64,000 nucleotides of DNA from an uncultured bacterium. GTDB taxonomy: Bacteria; Cyanobacteriota; Cyanobacteriia; Cyanobacteriales; JASJDA01. Location: the NCBI GenBank assembly GCA_964458305.1, contig CAYWIH010000002.1, forward strand, positions 32,599 to 96,598, written 5' to 3'. Position 1 is the stretch's first letter, and the number at the start of each line of letters is the position of its first letter. The notes under the pieces were generated by a model. The model was given only the letters and a program-made list of their open reading frames with translations. It made no database searches and had not been told where the DNA came from. Of this stretch, positions 9,426 to 41,901 are shown one piece after another. A program made the translations under genes and the position numbers.

Positions 9426-10808
9426 ATGTCGATTAGGATGCGCGATCGCCTCCTGAAAAAATTGCGTTCAAAAGCTCTAGTAGTAATGATTATTACTTTT
9501 TTTGGAATGCTGTTTGGTTTGTTAGTAGATATACTAACTGCCGCTAGGTTTGGTAACAGTCAAACTGCTGACGCTTTAATTATTGCACTTTCCTTTCCTA
9601 GATTGATAGATACTGTCAGTCGCGAAGGGACAAAATTTAGTTTAGTACCTTTATTTATCGAGCGAAAAGAAGCACTGTCATCGAAGAGCTTCAATCATTT
9701 TGCAAGCGGTATTTTCAATCTGAGTTTAATATCAGGTATTACCTTAACAATTTTTTGTGAAATATTTGCCTCGATAATCTTAATTCCTTTAGCACCGGGC
9801 CTGTCTCCCGAAGCATTCAGCGAAACAGTTTTTTTATTTCGGGTTTGCGCTCCTTTAATAATTTTTGCTCCAGGAATAGCCGTGCTGAGCGTTCTACTCA
9901 ACAGCCAAAAACACTTTTATATGGTGGCTTTCCGCAATGCTGTCGCTCCCAGTTTTATGGTGGCTGCTTATGGTTTCGCTTGGAATGCTGAAAATGTTGC
10001 CTTTTGGGTTGTTTTATCTTTTGCGATCGGCTTTGCTGTTTTTTTGATTACTTTGTTTTTTGATGCTCGGAGAATTTTGGGACACCAACATCAATGGTTG
10101 GCAATAGCTTCTAAAGAGGATTTAGTTCGTCTTTGGGGAGCTGGTTTTTTACCCACTATCGGCTTTATTTTTCGACAGACGGGTAATATAATTTCGCGCC
10201 AATCATTAGTTACTTTAGCCGCTCCTCCCGGGGGAGTAGCAATTTTTTATTTTGCTACTCGTTTGTTTGCAGCAGCTCAAAATTTGATCGGAGTCAGTAT
10301 TGTTACCACTAGCTTACCGGCAATGACAGAACACGATCTGGCCGGAAATAGAGCTAAATTAGCCGCCGCTATCCGTAAAAATTTAGCCGATGTATTAATA
10401 GTTACTTTACCTGCAGTATTTTTAATCGTCTTTTTTAACGAGTACATTATTAATTTAATTTACCAAAGGGGTAACTTTTCGGCAGAAGATGTCAAGCAAA
10501 CTTCCGAGATTTTCTTTTGGTTGGGATGGGGATTAATTTTTACTTCTTTAGTGCCAGTTTTGAATTCTGGTTTGTACGCCCAAAGAGCTTATAATGTAGT
10601 CTTTAAAGTTATGGTTAGCATGACTTTTGTCGGGGTTATTCTTTCTTGGATATTTTTACAATGGAAAGGTTTGGCTGGGGTAGCGATCGCTATTTCTCTT
10701 AATGGTTTAATTGCCGTATTAACTTTGATATATTGCCTGTCTAAAACAGGAATTTCTTTAACGATCGTTCCTCGAAAAAAAGCGAATGCTAACATACAGA
10801 AAGATTGA
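9426..10808 (+). CDS. MOP-superfamily flippase (MurJ/MviN/Wzx-like polysaccharide biosynthesis protein)
   Basis: 460 aa polytopic membrane protein. N-terminus LVDILTAARFGNSQTADALIIALSFPRLI resembles MurJ/MviN. Sits in the polysaccharide cluster. Confidence 0.7.
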   Translation: MSIRMRDRLLKKLRSKALVVMIITFFGMLFGLLVDILTAARFGNSQTADALIIALSFPRLIDTVSREGTKFSLVPLFIERKEALSSKSFNHFASGIFNLSLISGITLTIFCEIFASIILIPLAPGLSPEAFSETVFLFRVCAPLIIFAPGIAVLSVLLNSQKHFYMVAFRNAVAPSFMVAAYGFAWNAENVAFWVVLSFAIGFAVFLITLFFDARRILGHQHQWLAIASKEDLVRLWGAGFLPTIGFIFRQTGNIISRQSLVTLAAPPGGVAIFYFATRLFAAAQNLIGVSIVTTSLPAMTEHDLAGNRAKLAAAIRKNLADVLIVTLPAVFLIVFFNEYIINLIYQRGNFSAEDVKQTSEIFFWLGWGLIFTSLVPVLNSGLYAQRAYNVVFKVMVSMTFVGVILSWIFLQWKGLAGVAIAISLNGLIAVLTLIYCLSKTGISLTIVPRKKANANIQKD

Positions 10809-33241: not shown

Positions 33242-33661
33242 TTAAGGCTGAATTATCGGACAAATAGTATCTGCTTTTGTGTTTTGTTTTGGTTGAGTTT
33301 CTGAAATTAAAGACTGTAATTTAATTTTGAGATCTTTTAATTGTTCGATGCGATCGTCTATTTCTTCAATTTTAATTTTAAGAGTCTGGCGAACTTTACT
33401 ACAAGGCATTTCTCCTCGATCGTGAATTTGCAGTAGCTGTCCAATTTCAGTGAGGCTCAAACCAAGACTTTGAGAGCGTTTAATAAAATTAAGTCGCCCA
33501 ACAATTTCAGGAGAAAAAAGCCTAAACCCTCCTTCTGTGCGCTTTAGGGCTTGAAGCAATCCCAATTTTTCATAATAGCGAATTGTTTCGATTGAAACCT
33601 TAGTTATTGAAGAGATTTCCCCGATCCGCAAGAGTTTTTCTTCTCGATCCGACATAAGCAA
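33242..33661 (-). CDS. MerR-family transcriptional regulator
   Basis: HTH LRIGEISSITKVSIETIRYYEKLGLL, a long dimerisation helix, and Cys residues at positions 87 and 134. It is the last gene of the minus-strand DUF4139 operon. Confidence 0.85.
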   Translation of the reverse strand: MLMSDREEKLLRIGEISSITKVSIETIRYYEKLGLLQALKRTEGGFRLFSPEIVGRLNFIKRSQSLGLSLTEIGQLLQIHDRGEMPCSKVRQTLKIKIEEIDDRIEQLKDLKIKLQSLISETQPKQNTKADTICPIIQP

Positions 33662-33683: not shown

Positions 33684-35264
33684 CTAAGCTAAAAAATCCA
33701 CTTCTAAATTTACTTCTGGATTCACTTTAATTTTATATACTAAATCGATTTGGTGCTGAGAATAAGCATTTAAATTTAAATTCCAAATACAAAAACCATT
33801 TTCATCTGGCTCGACTCGATCGCTTGTTTTAGTTTTTATTATTTCGATTGTGACTTCTTCTAATTCTGAAATTGGTACTCGTTCGATTAGTTTAATTTCC
33901 CTGTTGCGATCGCTAATATTAGAAAGAAAAATTTGAACTGTAAAAATATAAATATCCCACTTTGTGAGATTATCTTCTTTTTTTTCCCAATCTTTTTCTC
34001 GCTGTACTCTTATTCCCGCATCCGCACCCCATCCTAAAGCAAATTTTTCTTGAGGTGCGATAAATAAAATTGAAGTTTTACCAATAAATTCTGTAGCACT
34101 AATTAAGTCTACTGGTGCGGCTAATAAAGGATAATTAGATAGATTAGTTTGAGTACTTTTAAGAATTACTTGCGGGGCTATTTCTGGCATTAAAAGATAT
34201 TCTATTTCTGCGGGCGATCGAAATTCAAATAAAGGTACTCGATAGGGACGACCGTCAGAAGGGATCTTAGCTTTATTTAAAGCTCTTAATATCCTTACTT
34301 CTCCCCCATCATCGACACCGGGTAAATTAACAGTAGTTGATATTTGTTCTGGTTTAATTCCGGTTGTTTGGATTGTTTGTTCTCTAGGTTTGACAATAAT
34401 TTGTTCCGATTTATTTTTAATATTAAGTAAATCGTCGTTAAGTAGAGGTGGTTCTGTTCCCAAACTAGCCCTTGCTGTCGAAAAAACTAAATCGACATTT
34501 TCCCAATCTTCTCCGGTATTTTGCCAAACACAACCATCACAGCCAAACTCGATCGAAGCTTTTTCTGCTGTTATTAAACGCGCCCGATGCCAAGGTCGCC
34601 AAAGAGCGTTAGCAACGATATATTCAAAGCTTATTTCGTATTCTCTTGGTTGGTTAATTGTCAGATCTACTTCGATATTAGCTGTATAAATATAATCCGG
34701 TCGGGCGATATTTTCGATTCTTGCGATTAAATAATTAATCTTTTCTGCCAGTTTTTCTTGTTCGTAATAGTTACTAACAATTTCGTTTTGTAAGTCTCGC
34801 ATTCTTTGCCACAAAGAATTTAATTGCCTGCGCCAACTGCTAAGATCTAACTGTCCCCAAACCGCATCGATCGGAATTTCTGCGATAGTTTTATTTAATA
34901 TCTCTTTTAATCTTATAAAAGATTTTTCACCGTGCTGACGTTCTTCATTTTTTATTTCAAAATTATTTACAAAATCACGATATTCTACTAACAGTTCTTT
35001 GATTTCTGCTGGTTTTTCTGCTTCTTTAACTAACATTTTACGGCGCGATCGCACGTCATTAATAAGATTATTTTTAGACAAATTTACAAATTCCGCTCTT
35101 AAAGATTTATCCCAAAGAAGCGGAGTGATTTTATCTATTTTTACCCTCCACAAACCAGGATTTAAATTAATAGTTGTTTTTCGCCTTACTAAAGCCCGAT
35201 CTTCAAGTAAAGTTACTACAGAAATAGGAGCATTTATAATTAATTCACTAATTCTTTTTGACAT
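33684..35264 (-). CDS. DUF4140/DUF4139 (MuiA-like) family protein, short paralog
   Basis: 526 aa. N-terminal beta-rich segment APISVVTLLEDRALVRRKTTINL, a central coiled coil, and a C-terminal region (WRPWHRARL...VDLVFSTA...LIERVPIS) collinear with the 774-aa neighbour. Confidence 0.6.
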   Translation of the reverse strand: MSKRISELIINAPISVVTLLEDRALVRRKTTINLNPGLWRVKIDKITPLLWDKSLRAEFVNLSKNNLINDVRSRRKMLVKEAEKPAEIKELLVEYRDFVNNFEIKNEERQHGEKSFIRLKEILNKTIAEIPIDAVWGQLDLSSWRRQLNSLWQRMRDLQNEIVSNYYEQEKLAEKINYLIARIENIARPDYIYTANIEVDLTINQPREYEISFEYIVANALWRPWHRARLITAEKASIEFGCDGCVWQNTGEDWENVDLVFSTARASLGTEPPLLNDDLLNIKNKSEQIIVKPREQTIQTTGIKPEQISTTVNLPGVDDGGEVRILRALNKAKIPSDGRPYRVPLFEFRSPAEIEYLLMPEIAPQVILKSTQTNLSNYPLLAAPVDLISATEFIGKTSILFIAPQEKFALGWGADAGIRVQREKDWEKKEDNLTKWDIYIFTVQIFLSNISDRNREIKLIERVPISELEEVTIEIIKTKTSDRVEPDENGFCIWNLNLNAYSQHQIDLVYKIKVNPEVNLEVDFLA

Positions 35265-35370: not shown

Positions 35371-37695
35371 TTATTCTCTTCTATTACCGCCAATTAACTC
35401 TTTATCGATAAAAGTTTTAACAGTATAATTTACTTCTAAAATTGTTTCTTCTTTTGCGGGTAAATCGATTTGCCAGCGATAACCGCCTTTAATTATGGCA
35501 TTTCTTTCTTTTTGATTGTATTCTTCCCATTCTGGAGATAAGCGATCGATCTCGACATCGACTTTAACATTGCGATCGGCTACGGGTATTCTTTCTCTAA
35601 CTTCTATTTTTGCCGATCTATTTAAACGGTTGGCCAGATCTATTTTAATTTGATGGTGTAATTGATTTAAGGCTACTAAACTATCGCTCGATCGGGTTTC
35701 ATTATAGTTAGTATTGCGAGCAACTTTTATTGCTTGTTCTACTCCCAATCCTAATTCCATTTCTCCACCAGTTGGGACAGTTTTAATGTTAGTTCCGAGG
35801 ATATATTCTCCATCGACATAAATATCCGCCGATCCTGCCAATAATGGGGCTTGTAGTGGGTTGCGAAGCTGGGCGATTCTAAATACATTTGTACTTTCGC
35901 GCGGAACTACTACATAACGTAAATTAACATCTGTATTTTGAGATGCGATCGCCACTGAATGAAATTGTCCGTCGCTGAGTAAATCTATTCTTCCTGCTGC
36001 TAAATAAGCATAATCGAAAGATCCTGCTTCTTCGCGAACGTCGATCGATCCGATAGGAAGAGATGGTATGTTATTTGTGGCTTCAAAAGTGGCTTTTTTT
36101 ACTCGATCGATAATATTGAAAGATACGATCGCTTTTTGCCGTTTGAGGTATGTTAAGTATATTTCTTGGCGCGATTCGATGTATAATTTACCTCGTTTGG
36201 ATCTATTATCTGCCGAACTCAATCGCATTAAATTATATGCCAGGCGATCGATCTGAGTTGACATTTTTATTCTCGACTGCGATCTTTTTCGCAATGATGA
36301 AGATCTAGTAGTAATTCCTCTTGCTTTTTCTTCTGGTTCTTCTAAAGTATATCCAGCATTAGCACCAGCTTGTTCTAGCCGAGCTATTACCTCTTCAGCT
36401 TTTTCTTTAGTTAAACCTTGTATGGCTGCTGGTATTGATTCGACGAACTCTTTAGATTCTTTCAGCCCCAAACCAGTAATCGATCTTATTTCTTTGAGGA
36501 TCGCAACTTTGTTCCGTTGTGGAACATTTGTCAGATAAACATCAAATTCTGTTTGTTCTTCTTCTGGTTCGGCAGCAGCACCCATCATCCCCGGCATCAT
36601 CATACCACCAAAAGCACTAGGAGGAGCATCAAGTTCTTCAAGATCGTAGGGAATATCCAAATCTAAAAGAGGTGCTACATTGACAGGAGATATATAAGGC
36701 AGATCGTATCGATCTGAAACGAGATCTTGCTTAGCTATATTTTTATGTCGATCGTAATCTTCAAAAAGAACTTCAGATCCTCTAGGAGGTTGTCGCCATC
36801 CAGTTTTTACTGGTAAACTAGGCTGAGCCTTGCCAATACGTAAAGAAGGTAATTCTGGTAATTCGCACCAACTTTCTGGCAAAGCGGTGGATAATTCTAA
36901 ACGCACCCCCAACCAATCTTCGCCACTATAATGAGCGATCGAGGCACGCATTGCAATAGTCGCTGTATTATTTTTACTATCCAAACGACAAACATAAGTA
37001 GGAGTCCAACGCGCTCCAGGCACGAAGTATTCTATTATTAATCTAGCTCGAGTAAAATTAGCTATCTCCCCGCTATAATTTAAACTTACTATTACTGTTT
37101 TGCGTAATTCGTTCGGTTTGGCTGCTTTTGCTGTCGAGGCTAATTTTTGTTTTTGTTCTAGATCTTGAAGATGTTCGATCGCCTGACGTAATTTTGCTTT
37201 ATTTTCGCGTCGCTCTTTTAATTTAATCTTAATTTCTTCTTCTTTAAAATTAGCTATTGCTAATCTTGCAGCGATCGGCGATGGTGGTGGGGCTTTTTTC
37301 GGATCTGGGTGGGGGCGATCGGGTATCTTTAAATCTGCGATCGCTTCTATTTCTGCATCTATTAAAGCGATGATGTTCTGTAATTTCTGTTCTGCTGCTT
37401 TGGCTTGTCTTATTGCTTCTTCTGGGGGAATAGAGTCGATTTTTTGCGGTGGTGGTACTGCCAAACCGATGCGAATATCCGTGGCGATCGCACTATTTTC
37501 TGACGATTCTGTTTCTACTCTAGCCCTAACGGAACTATCTTCTAAAGCTAAAGGCAGCCCAGCAATTTCTACTCTACTGGGTATCTCCCCATCGACTAAT
37601 TCTAAGTTAGCGATGCGGGTTATTGTCGCACCACTTGCATACACTTTTGCCTTATCGATGTTGGAATTTAATCGAGCTAAACTCATAAAATACAT
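35371..37695 (-). CDS. DUF4140/DUF4139 (MuiA-like) family protein with an inserted ribosomal bL12 (L7/L12) hinge + C-terminal domain
   Basis: 774 aa (start ATG 37695 or 37686). The N-terminus [17 protein letters not shown], a coiled coil, and C-terminal [17 protein letters not shown]...VRERIPVAD are collinear with the 526-aa paralog. Residues about 355-451 are bL12-like. Confidence 0.7.
36343..36561 (-). other. bL12 (L7/L12) C-terminal-domain-like segment inside the 774-aa ORF
   Basis: [74 protein letters not shown] compared with E. coli bL12 [71 protein letters not shown]. It is preceded by a Gly/Ala/Met/Pro hinge. Confidence 0.8.
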
Positions 37696-38177: not shown

Positions 38178-38429
38178 ATTAGATCGAATTTAAAAAATCA
38201 ATTATCAGAAGTCAAATTAATATCAACGTAAAAATCACTGAAGATCGAGGGAAGCAAACAGATTAGAAACACGATCTCAAAGCATGTAATTTAAATTTGT
38301 CAAGAGATTTAGAAGGACGAAGAAAAAAAATTGCCAAAACCTTTGGCAAAACTGAGAAAAACTCTGTAATAGTAAAATTTAGAACCGCAATTGATTTCTC
38401 AGAAAGTCTAAAACAACTAGAATATTAAG

Positions 38430-38816
38430 TTAGTTGAGATTATGTTTTAGATCGAGGTGTTTAAAAACGGTACCGATTAAATCTTGAGGAGCATATGGTT
38501 TTGTGATGTAGTCCGTACCTCCTTGTCGTAAAGCCCAAAAGCGATCGAATTCTTCAGCTCTAGAACTGCAAAACAAGATAGGTATTTCTTGCCATTCTTG
38601 GGAACGGGAACGAATTTGACGACAAAACTCCAAACCATTAATACCAGGTAAAATAATATCTAAGAGAATCATATCGGGGAAGGAATTAACTTTTAACCAG
38701 TTCCAAGCGTTTTCTACACTATTTACTTCTCCGACTTTAAATCCAGCTTGTCTTAATAATGCTGACATTAGCCTTCTTTCTGATTTAGTGTCTTCCACTA
38801 CAAGTACAGTCTTCAT
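38430..38816 (-). CDS. Single-domain CheY-like response regulator
   Basis: MKTVLVVEDTKSE...PDMILLDIILPGINGLEF...PILFCSS...ITKPY. All receiver signature residues are present. Confidence 0.9.
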   Translation of the reverse strand: MKTVLVVEDTKSERRLMSALLRQAGFKVGEVNSVENAWNWLKVNSFPDMILLDIILPGINGLEFCRQIRSRSQEWQEIPILFCSSRAEEFDRFWALRQGGTDYITKPYAPQDLIGTVFKHLDLKHNLN

Positions 38817-40899: not shown

Positions 40900-41901
40900 A
40901 TGGCTGTAATAAACGGGACAATTTCTGATGATATTTTATCGGGAACATTTGGAAATGATGTTCTTCAAGGTTTTGAAGGTAATGATGTTTTAAATGGAGG
41001 ATCGGGGGACGATCTTTTGAGAGGAGGAGGGGGAAACGATACTCTTAATGGAGGATTCGGCATCGATACTATAGATGGTGGATCGGGATTCGATCTGGTT
41101 GATTATAATTATTTAAATGGAGTAGTTAATCTCGATCTCAATACTGGTATCGCCAGGTTTCCGGGCAATACAACTTTAACCGAAACATTAATCAGTATTG
41201 AAGATGTCATTGGTAGTAATGGTAACGATACTTTAATTGGCAACAATGTCGGCAATCAACTTTTTGGCAGTAACGGTAACGATCTTTTGAGAGGAGGAGG
41301 AGGAAACGATACTCTTAATGGAGGATTCGGTATCGATACTCTAGATGGTGGATCGGGGATAGATCTGGTTGATTATAATTATTTAAATGGAGTAGTTAAT
41401 CTCGATCTCAATACTGGTATCGCCAGGTTTCCGGGCAATACAACTTTAACCGAAACATTAATCAGTATTGAAGATGTCATTGGTAGTAATGGTAACGATA
41501 CTTTAATTGGCAACAATGTCGATAATTATTTTGTTGGCAGTAAAGGAAACGATTTTTTATTCGGACAAGGTGGTAACGATATTTTAGTAGGAGGAGGAGT
41601 TGCAAATAATAGTTCTGAATTTGATATCTTAGAAGGAGGATTCGGAGCGGATACTTTTGTATTGGGCGATTCTATTGATACTTTTTATAAAGGAGATGGT
41701 TTCGCTACTATTACTGACTTTTTTGCGATCGAAGGTGATGTAATTGAAGTTAGCGCACGATACAACTACGAACTAAAATCAGCCTTTGGTGGAGTGGATC
41801 TTGTTTATCAGGGAGATGCGATCGCTTTTATTGATGGGGTAAGTTTAAACGATATTAATCTTGCACCAGTTTCTTCAGGTGGCAATTTTATTTACGTTTA
41901 A
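40900..41901 (+). CDS. RTX-type (hemolysin-type) calcium-binding repeat protein
   Basis: Repeated GGxGxD nonapeptides ([33 protein letters not shown]...). No N-terminal signal peptide, consistent with a T1SS-type substrate. Confidence 0.85.
41011..41521 (+). repeat. Near-identical 241-bp segments repeated with a 270-bp period inside the RTX gene
   Basis: 41011-41251 and 41281-41521 differ at only a handful of positions (for example GGCATCGATACTATAGAT vs GGTATCGATACTCTAGAT). They encode duplicated 80-aa blocks. Confidence 0.9.

Follow-up and report, generated by a model that had tools for sequence, protein, structure and literature searches.

A ribosomal bL12 C-terminal domain in the variable, disordered slot of a cyanobacterial DUF4139 (MuiA-family) protein

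We analysed two adjacent genes of the DUF4140/DUF4139 (MuiA) family in a 64,000-nucleotide stretch of DNA from an uncultured cyanobacterium (Cyanobacteriales, JASJDA01; GenBank assembly GCA_964458305.1, contig CAYWIH010000002.1, positions 32,599 to 96,598 of the forward strand), hereafter the window, whose own numbering is used throughout. The longer gene carries, in frame and within its DUF4139 region, the hinge and C-terminal domain (CTD) of the ribosomal stalk protein bL12. An earlier, sequence-only reading of the window had drawn attention to this insert in a 774-amino-acid (aa) open reading frame (ORF); the ORF is present at 35371..37695 on the minus strand, and the segment quoted was found letter for letter in its translation. 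The stretch between the two halves of DUF4139, where the insert lies, is here called the slot.

35371..37695, minus strand: long DUF4140/DUF4139 (MuiA-family) gene, 774 aa, carrier of the insert (ORF list; Pfam and NCBIfam; orthologs at 50-96% identity).
37342..37647, minus strand: DUF4140 N-terminal beta domain, aa 17-118 (PF13600, E 1.4e-9, 38.7 bits against a cut-off of 27; strands in the AlphaFold2 (AF2) model at predicted local distance difference test (pLDDT) values of 75-91).
37126..37422, minus strand: long alpha-helical hairpin, aa 92-190 (AF2 helices 92-120 and 141-190, pLDDT 85-95; same hairpin in the model of the short paralog).
36724..37104, minus strand: first half of DUF4139, aa 198-324, the conserved N-terminal flank of the slot (column identity 0.7-0.95 over 122 sequences; Pfam DUF4139 from aa 221).
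36553..36723, minus strand: linker 1, aa 325-381, acidic and predicted to be disordered (pLDDT ~30-35; ratio of nonsynonymous to synonymous substitution rates, dN/dS, 0.31-1.14); its final ~22 residues are a cyanobacterial-type bL12 hinge, as aligned to cyanobacterial bL12 hinges.
36346..36552, minus strand: bL12 CTD, aa 382-450 (PF00542; template modelling (TM) score of 0.91 to 1ctf; dN/dS 0.10-0.49).
36244..36345, minus strand: linker 2, aa 451-484, EPEE-rich, then Ser/Arg-rich and basic, predicted to be disordered (pLDDT ~30-47).
35374..36243, minus strand: second half of DUF4139, aa 485-774, the conserved C-terminal flank of the slot (column identity 0.65-0.99; beta-rich in the AF2 model).
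33684..35264, minus strand: short DUF4140/DUF4139 paralog, 526 aa, directly downstream of the long gene (TIGR02231, E 6.7e-66; AF2 pLDDT 79).

Both proteins score far over the cut-offs of TIGR02231, DUF4139 and DUF4140, the long one with E 7e-65 and 219.6 bits on TIGR02231, the MuiA-family model of NCBIfam (cut-off 112.6). The flanks of the insert had been described as non-ribosomal and as shared with a neighbouring paralog devoid of the insert, which agrees with our results: both ORFs are members of TIGR02231 at E values of ~1e-65, and the short protein, 22% identical to the long one, has no L12 insert. In the long protein, DUF4139 appears in Pfam as one split match (aa 221-760, E 3.5e-32, 112.2 bits against a cut-off of 31.8) interrupted by the insert. 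There, Ribosomal_L12 (PF00542) matches aa 384-446 with E 3.9e-19 and 69.2 bits (cut-off 25.9), over profile positions 1-63 of 67, so that the three Pfam profiles proposed earlier as a check (PF00542, DUF4139 and DUF4140) all exceed their gathering scores. The junctions had also been placed correctly, the CTD corresponding to nucleotides 36346-36552.

The bL12 equivalog model TIGR00855 is matched only over positions 45-122 of 125, at 76.4 bits and below its cut-off of 84.4, which indicates that the hinge and the CTD are present and the N-terminal domain (NTD) is not. The absence of the NTD, already recognized in the sequence-only reading, is further seen in the lack of any PF16320 match in the long protein; this profile is present in all 119 true bL12 matches having both ends. 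Against the PDB, phmmer matched E. coli bL12 at E 4e-14, aligning aa 355-446 of the long protein with residues 22-115.

In the AF2 model, built from a 46-sequence alignment, aa 384-450 adopt a beta-alpha-alpha-beta-alpha-beta fold with pLDDT values of 83-92, and this model superposes on the bL12 CTD structure 1ctf over 68 residues (Foldseek TMt 0.91, root-mean-square deviation 0.9 Å), as well as on 1rqs (TMt 0.84). The significant Foldseek matches of the insert in the PDB were bL12 structures only. Weak fold matches to ClpS were also obtained (E 0.1-0.6), but in the same search the insert was 10-15% identical to ClpS against 43-51% to bL12. The stretches on both sides of the domain (aa 325-380 and 452-486) have pLDDT values near 30, in line with the flexible tethering proposed from the sequence. 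Pfam, the PDB search and the AF2/Foldseek comparison therefore agree that a true bL12 hinge and CTD lie in frame within a DUF4139 protein, and the insert is a bL12 CTD both in sequence and in fold.

Such an architecture could in principle be an artefact of assembly or annotation, produced by a chimeric contig in which rplL had become attached to a DUF4139 gene. The guanine-cytosine content across the insert (0.40-0.41) is the same as in the remainder of the gene, and on both sides of it the conserved DUF4139 alignment carries on. Moreover, the same in-frame architecture recurs in independent assemblies from different samples (relatives and fetched loci bear P and L numbers, respectively): in L086 (Logan SRR830622), at 96% aa identity; in P0002, from three contigs of three assemblies and from L008, a locus of a GTDB metagenome-assembled genome (MAG); and in P0003, from an ENA metagenome contig and from the MAG locus L016. 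Divergence between these copies is lineage-specific, with purifying selection at the codon level. Given this recurrence and the absence of a compositional break, mis-assembly can be excluded; we regard its probability as negligible.

When the insert was searched alone, its best relatives were bona fide cyanobacterial bL12 proteins at 55-64% identity, including those of Trichodesmium, Prochlorothrix, Prochloraceae and Rivularia. The hinge of the insert aligns with the Met/Gly/Pro/Ala hinge typical of cyanobacterial bL12, suggesting that the captured piece starts at the NTD/hinge boundary of a cyanobacterial rplL. Within the window, a tblastn search for rplL returned only the insert itself; the rplL of the host genome lies outside the window, and the insert was compared with 110 cyanobacterial bL12 sequences. 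A phage origin was rejected, since 50,697 phage records searched by tblastn gave host-type bL12 only, at no more than 53% identity and with no cyanophage among them.

The sequence-only reading had called for a survey of how widely the fusion occurs. Among 5.8 billion cluster representatives, the L12 insert was found in just three 90%-identity clusters besides that of the window, four in all. The conserved flanks were also used for a neighbour-joining tree, in which the six proteins with an L12 insert group together as a single pure clade (the window protein with P0001, P0002 with L008, and P0003 with L016), whose sisters are proteins without a domain in the slot and whose nearest named genomes are Prochloraceae cyanobacterium MAGs. 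A pure clade with domain-less sisters points to a single capture of the L12 domain from a cyanobacterial rplL.

At the nucleotide level, a 27-nt direct repeat (36313-36339 and 36544-36570), whose copies are 78% identical and share an exact 12-mer, flanks the L12 CTD precisely, coding for EPEEEQTEF just N-terminal of the domain and EPEEKARGI just C-terminal of it; P0003 retains a similar EEERVRG C-terminal of its CTD. This repeat may be a trace of the capture, by microhomology or duplication, or may have arisen by chance.

True cyanobacterial bL12 CTDs share a mean pairwise identity of 81%, while the fused CTDs reach 55% (window), 50% (P0003) and 42% (P0002) identity with them and ~50% among themselves, with flanks of the same proteins at 66-85%. 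We estimated dN/dS by the Nei-Gojobori method for four pairs, namely the window protein with P0001, P0003 and P0002, in this order, and P0002 with P0003. Values for the L12 CTD were 0.10, 0.31, 0.46 and 0.49, against 0.08-0.28 for the scaffold flanks and 0.36-1.14 for the two linkers in the three between-lineage pairs; in the closest pair the linkers gave 0.31 and 0.17, from small counts. This pattern indicates that the CTD is under purifying selection, although weaker than that on the scaffold.

Conservation is unevenly distributed along the domain. Helices alpha4-alpha5 are 70% (window) and 66% (P0003) identical to those of true bL12, and the beta2-alpha6-beta3 half goes down to 33-40%. We take the factor-binding face of E. 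coli bL12 to consist of K65, V66, I69, K70, R73, L80, K81, E82 and K84. In the window protein K396, V397, K401, R404, L411, K412, E413 and K415 match this set and L400 replaces I69 conservatively; P0003 retains the set as well. Judged from the alignments, the factor-binding helices are the best-kept part of the L12 copy. All fused copies also have in common three derived changes, K107I, V72I and a K-to-N replacement before K65.

The bL12 domain is only one of several contents of the slot. A search with the whole protein yielded 315 relatives at E <= 1e-3, and the best 120 of them, 49-96% identical and of similar length, were aligned: conservation is strong over residues 1-340 and 481-774, and the stretch 341-480 is variable. 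Across long subunits the slot forms an arm of 100-450 aa predicted to be disordered, which in most orthologs consists of 100-150 residues of low-complexity sequence without any folded domain. Its middle is acidic in 256 of 321 slots and its tail basic in 144 of 321, with a basic cluster at the start in 43 of 321. The Ser/Arg-rich stretch that the sequence-only reading noted after the insert does exist, but it cannot be taken as a property of the insert, a basic tail being common in the slots of the family.

Other cyanobacterial clades carry other heads in this position. One has the RpoA alphaCTD (Pfam RNA_pol_A_CTD, 52.7 bits), whose closest solved relatives are RNA polymerase alpha-subunit chains, residues 251-325/328 (8gzg, E 2e-30); we take 8gzg and the other top entries to be cyanobacterial enzymes. 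A second has two Clp_N repeats (106.9 bits), corresponding to residues 3-147 of chloroplast-type ClpC1 (E 6e-66). A third has MshEN plus the first ~115 positions of T2SSE, that is, PilB residues 25-301 without the ATPase domain. Each of these heads is a flexibly tethered docking part of a core machine, and each resembles the cyanobacterial or chloroplast version of its donor. In Myxococcota orthologs the slots are purely disordered and rich in Pro and Ala, and MshEN was gained independently in a few representatives nearest Myxococcota (P0310, P0301, P0355).

Heads may also be lost between close relatives. P0008 and P0024 have flanks ~89-97% identical, and the 150-aa ClpC N-domain module is absent from P0008, which keeps QQMRGWEETAI, a relic of ClpC's QQIRTLGETAEV. 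The same pattern of absence and presence was found in P0005 and P0025, whose flanks are 70-82% identical. The relics of the C-terminal linker of ClpC in the domain-less P0008 and P0005 (…GWEETAI and …CGEIAEV, compared with …LGETAEV) indicate recent internal deletions. With ClpC-N, alphaCTD, PilB-N or nothing in the same position, an explanation must address the slot and not translation alone. The description given in the sequence-only reading agrees with our results on every point that could be checked, and its interpretation is borne out in part.

We also considered that other orthologs might hold a degenerate bL12 CTD, given the motif DEFDITLISPGM...ESMPAAAP. This was ruled out with a hidden Markov model of true cyanobacterial CTDs, on which the six L12-type slots score 64-86 bits and the other 315 slots at most 3.7, the maximum for shuffled sequences being 10.2. 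Within the otherwise unconserved slots of one cyanobacterial subclade (P0004-P0020 and others), a motif [DE]-[FY]-D-I-T-L-I-S-P-G-M is present in 29 of 95 plain slots and in all five ClpC-N slots, and in none of the L12, alphaCTD or PilB-N slots. It may be a linear docking motif.

The scaffold that holds these heads belongs to a large family, with ~10,850 cluster representatives of DUF4139/MuiA at E <= 1e-3. As modelled by AF2, the long (pLDDT 69.7) and short (pLDDT 79, predicted TM score 0.64) proteins both consist of beta-sandwich domains interrupted by a long alpha-hairpin, and the short paralog has a low-confidence loop of ~55 aa (266-321) at the position of the slot. Foldseek found no significant solved relative of the scaffold and no significant match to an enzyme or NTPase fold. 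Its weak matches, all with E >= 5e-3 and low TM, were to N-domains of glycoside phosphorylases, to the mu-homology domain of AP2/COPI, which binds cargo peptides, and to the alpha-hairpin periplasmic adaptors MacA/EmrA. The long protein is probably cytoplasmic, as no N-terminal signal peptide is obvious by eye (no predictor was used).

In the literature, DUF4139, PF13598, TIGR02231 and PF00542 were found only in incidental mentions, and we found no earlier account of a bL12 CTD lying within a protein outside the ribosome, nor of a variable slot in DUF4139 proteins. The earlier statement that no function had been described for this architecture agrees with our search.

The association of long and short genes is widely conserved. 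Both family members were found in all 85 fetched loci, cyanobacterial and myxococcal, including contigs that cut one member; on every contig long enough to show it, the long gene is followed by a short paralog of ~525-560 aa. The two genes are 106 nt apart in the window, and in Myxococcota (Archangium, Hyalangium, Pyxidicoccus, Haliangium and Polyangiaceae; L021-L085) they overlap. Beyond the short paralog, no neighbour is common to the L12-type loci, and none is conserved across the fetched loci as a whole. A mobile or plasmid-borne system was considered and rejected, with only three weak Streptomyces megaplasmid matches, as was a known defence system (0 families of PADLOC-DB v2 at E <= 0.1 for the long and short proteins).

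Additional genes accompany the pair in some genomes. In 13 cyanobacterial loci a gene for an Hpt-like protein of 165-215 aa lies between long and short (L006, at 9784-10377, L009, L010, L015, L018, L026, L028, L030, L032, L036, L037, L052 and L057). On Pfam Hpt the copy in L010 reaches 43.6 bits, the phospho-accepting His is missing in many copies, and Hpt-short fusions occur in protein clusters P0427 and P0441; the gene is absent from the L12 clade. In Coleofasciculus and Phormidium (L011, L041, L043, L045) a plain long gene, a PilB-N long gene (MshEN plus T2SSE-N) and the short gene stand in tandem. Four cyanobacterial loci have a single-domain CheY-like regulator after the short gene (L006, 12309-12698; L009, 7694-8077; L018, 4620-5009; L028, 10645-11040), 75-79% identical between loci. 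Some loci adjoin NB-ARC/CHAT/EAD1 or AAA_15/AAA_21 genes.

In the window, a receiver-only regulator (38430-38816, minus strand) adjoins the long gene; it is only 32-34% identical to the regulator of the other loci, and a terminator-like hairpin (38331-38349) lies between it and the long gene. A MerR-family regulator (33242-33661, minus strand) lies 22 nt past the short paralog in the same orientation, so that co-transcription of the two is possible; no such gene was found beside the pair in the other L12-type loci. The neighbours are housekeeping in character: the MerR regulator, a MacAB-like pump, prephenate dehydrogenase, a response regulator, an RRM protein and an RTX protein. The latter (HemolysinCabind; 40900-41901, plus strand) is made up of two nearly identical halves, each with …IGNNV, which indicates a recent internal duplication. 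Rfam revealed no RNA families in the window, and promoter and terminator scans gave counts at chance level.

The 774-aa protein is the long subunit of a conserved pair of long and short DUF4139 (MuiA-family) genes, with a predicted disordered arm, tending to be acidic at first and basic towards its end, between two conserved beta-rich halves. In one small Prochloraceae-related clade this arm captured the hinge and CTD of the cyanobacterium's own rplL. In the interpretation that we prefer, the arm would serve for docking, and the L12 CTD would be a head of host origin for which several others can stand in on the same flexible tether. On the ribosome, translational GTPases are recruited by the bL12 CTD; the L12 head would most likely still bind such factors (EF-Tu, EF-G, IF2 and RF3, for example) via helices alpha4 and alpha5, so that translation factors would be tethered to the DUF4139 scaffold or reported to it. 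Several heads might provide avidity, as on the ribosomal stalk, should the scaffold prove to be oligomeric. That the arm is a docking arm whose L12 head still binds translational GTPases seems to us the most likely explanation, though a tentative one with somewhat less than an even chance.

A broader proposal is that the long and short pair of cyanobacteria and myxobacteria constitutes an unrecognised cytoplasmic scaffold for surveillance or coupling, with the arm as a plug-in site for docking domains of core machines. The donors would be the ribosomal stalk, RNA polymerase alpha, the ClpC unfoldase and the PilB pilus motor, and the targets monitored or sequestered by the L12 form would be translational GTPases or their effector mimics. 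The system would then correspond, in bacteria, to integrated decoys, or would act as a programmable tether reaching the hubs of the cell. We consider this proposal improbable.

Several observations weigh against a docking role for the L12 head. Most orthologs have no folded head in the slot, and the loss of ClpC-N in close relatives implies that heads can be dispensable. Besides the insert, Pfam recognises only DUF4140 and DUF4139 in the scaffold, that is, no catalytic or signalling domain. Between lineages, dN in the CTD is ~1.2-3 times that of the scaffold; the factor face of P0002 is altered (K70Q, L80I, E82R); and every fused copy lacks lysines whose conservation in true bL12 exceeds 95%, five conserved lysines having been lost. 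Furthermore, the isolated bL12 CTD reportedly binds factors weakly, as Helgstrand et al. are said to have found in 2007 by nuclear magnetic resonance titrations.

Part of these data would suit a tolerated passenger, in which a permissive arm collects fragments of highly expressed genes and the L12 domain is a folded, soluble spacer with no role in ligand binding. The plain disordered arm of most orthologs, the ease of head loss recorded by the ClpC-N relics of P0008 and P0005, the raised dN of the CTD, the key factor-face residues missing from P0002 and the rarity of the L12 type, with its four clusters including the window, are all consistent with it. Yet a spacer would hardly account for a CTD dN/dS of 0.10-0.49 next to linkers at 0.36-1.14, which shows the fold to be under selection, nor for functional helices that are the most conserved part. 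The captured domains, moreover, are all flexibly tethered docking modules in their parent machines rather than random fragments, and MshEN was captured independently in two phyla; we therefore judge this alternative improbable, though not remotely so. Also unlikely, and slightly more so, is that the head has kept the L12 fold while acquiring a new partner, for example the short subunit or another protein, in place of translational GTPases. The derived changes K107I, V72I and K-to-N in all fused copies, the loss of five conserved lysines and the 33-40% identity of the beta2-alpha6-beta3 half argue for such a shift, and the L12 clade lacks the Hpt-like gene found between long and short in 13 other loci; the best-conserved part of the domain, however, is exactly the canonical factor face, and the conserved neighbourhood offers no obvious candidate for a partner.

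About as unlikely as a change of partner, in our view, is an integrated decoy, in which hub domains of the host, copied onto the arm, would bait effectors of phages or toxins, and the complex of long and short DUF4139 proteins would sense that an effector has bound or modified the bait. In its favour, head identity shifts between orthologs on a conserved scaffold, the heads all copy docking domains of housekeeping proteins of the host and change faster than the donors do, and modules are gained and lost between close relatives. Phages are known to target RNAP alpha and PilB. Tandem plain and PilB-N long genes in some genomes and the NB-ARC/CHAT/EAD1 or AAA_15/AAA_21 genes beside some loci point in the same direction. 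On the other hand, there is no PADLOC match and no recognisable effector domain in either subunit, the window neighbourhood is housekeeping, most orthologs have no bait and dN/dS in the CTD is below 1. Conservation of the pair is also broad and apparently vertical, at 50-60% identity across cyanobacterial orders and Myxococcota, while typical defence systems are patchy.

Comparison with known systems helps to place the proposed docking arm. With ribosomal bL12 the insert shares the PF00542 family, the beta-alpha-alpha-beta-alpha-beta fold, the Met/Gly/Ala/Pro hinge of cyanobacterial type, the flexible tether and most of the alpha4/alpha5 factor-binding residues. It differs from it in being internal and tethered at both ends, and in having diverged to 42-55% identity with true CTDs, with several conserved lysines gone and a score under the TIGR00855 cut-off. 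As the N-terminal domain for dimerisation and L10 binding is absent, the insert cannot join the ribosomal stalk. An off-ribosome precedent for L12 exists in the free pool of MRPL12 that binds mitochondrial RNA polymerase, but in that case a whole, free L12 acts in mitochondria and not a CTD embedded in another protein.

The scaffold itself resembles MuiA of Pseudomonas aeruginosa (PA1494, "mucoidy inhibitor A") in its layout of beta domains and a long alpha-hairpin. Pseudomonas MuiA is said to be periplasmic and to be known only from an overexpression phenotype. The cyanobacterial proteins, in contrast, come in long and short pairs with no signal peptide apparent by eye, and the long one of each pair is split by a hypervariable disordered slot into which domains have been inserted. 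Plant nucleotide-binding leucine-rich repeat (NLR) receptors with integrated decoys (RRS1-WRKY, RGA5/Pik-1-HMA) likewise carry different host-copied domains at a fixed position of a conserved chassis, with a presence that varies between close relatives. The likeness is one of analogy only: here there is no NTPase, signalling or effector module, no PADLOC match and no defence-island context, and most orthologs have no integrated domain.

The bL12 CTD described here is a selected, tethered module in a conserved non-ribosomal family. Of greater weight is the wider result that a single disordered site of one conserved scaffold has repeatedly received docking domains, from four different core machines. 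The swappable slot offers a concrete entry to the function of DUF4139/MuiA proteins, and pull-downs would be well defined because the ligands of the heads are known or easily guessed. If the heads are baits, they would amount to a new principle of bacterial sensing; as adaptors, they would provide multicellular or gliding bacteria with a new way to link one scaffold to the hubs of translation, transcription, proteolysis and motility.

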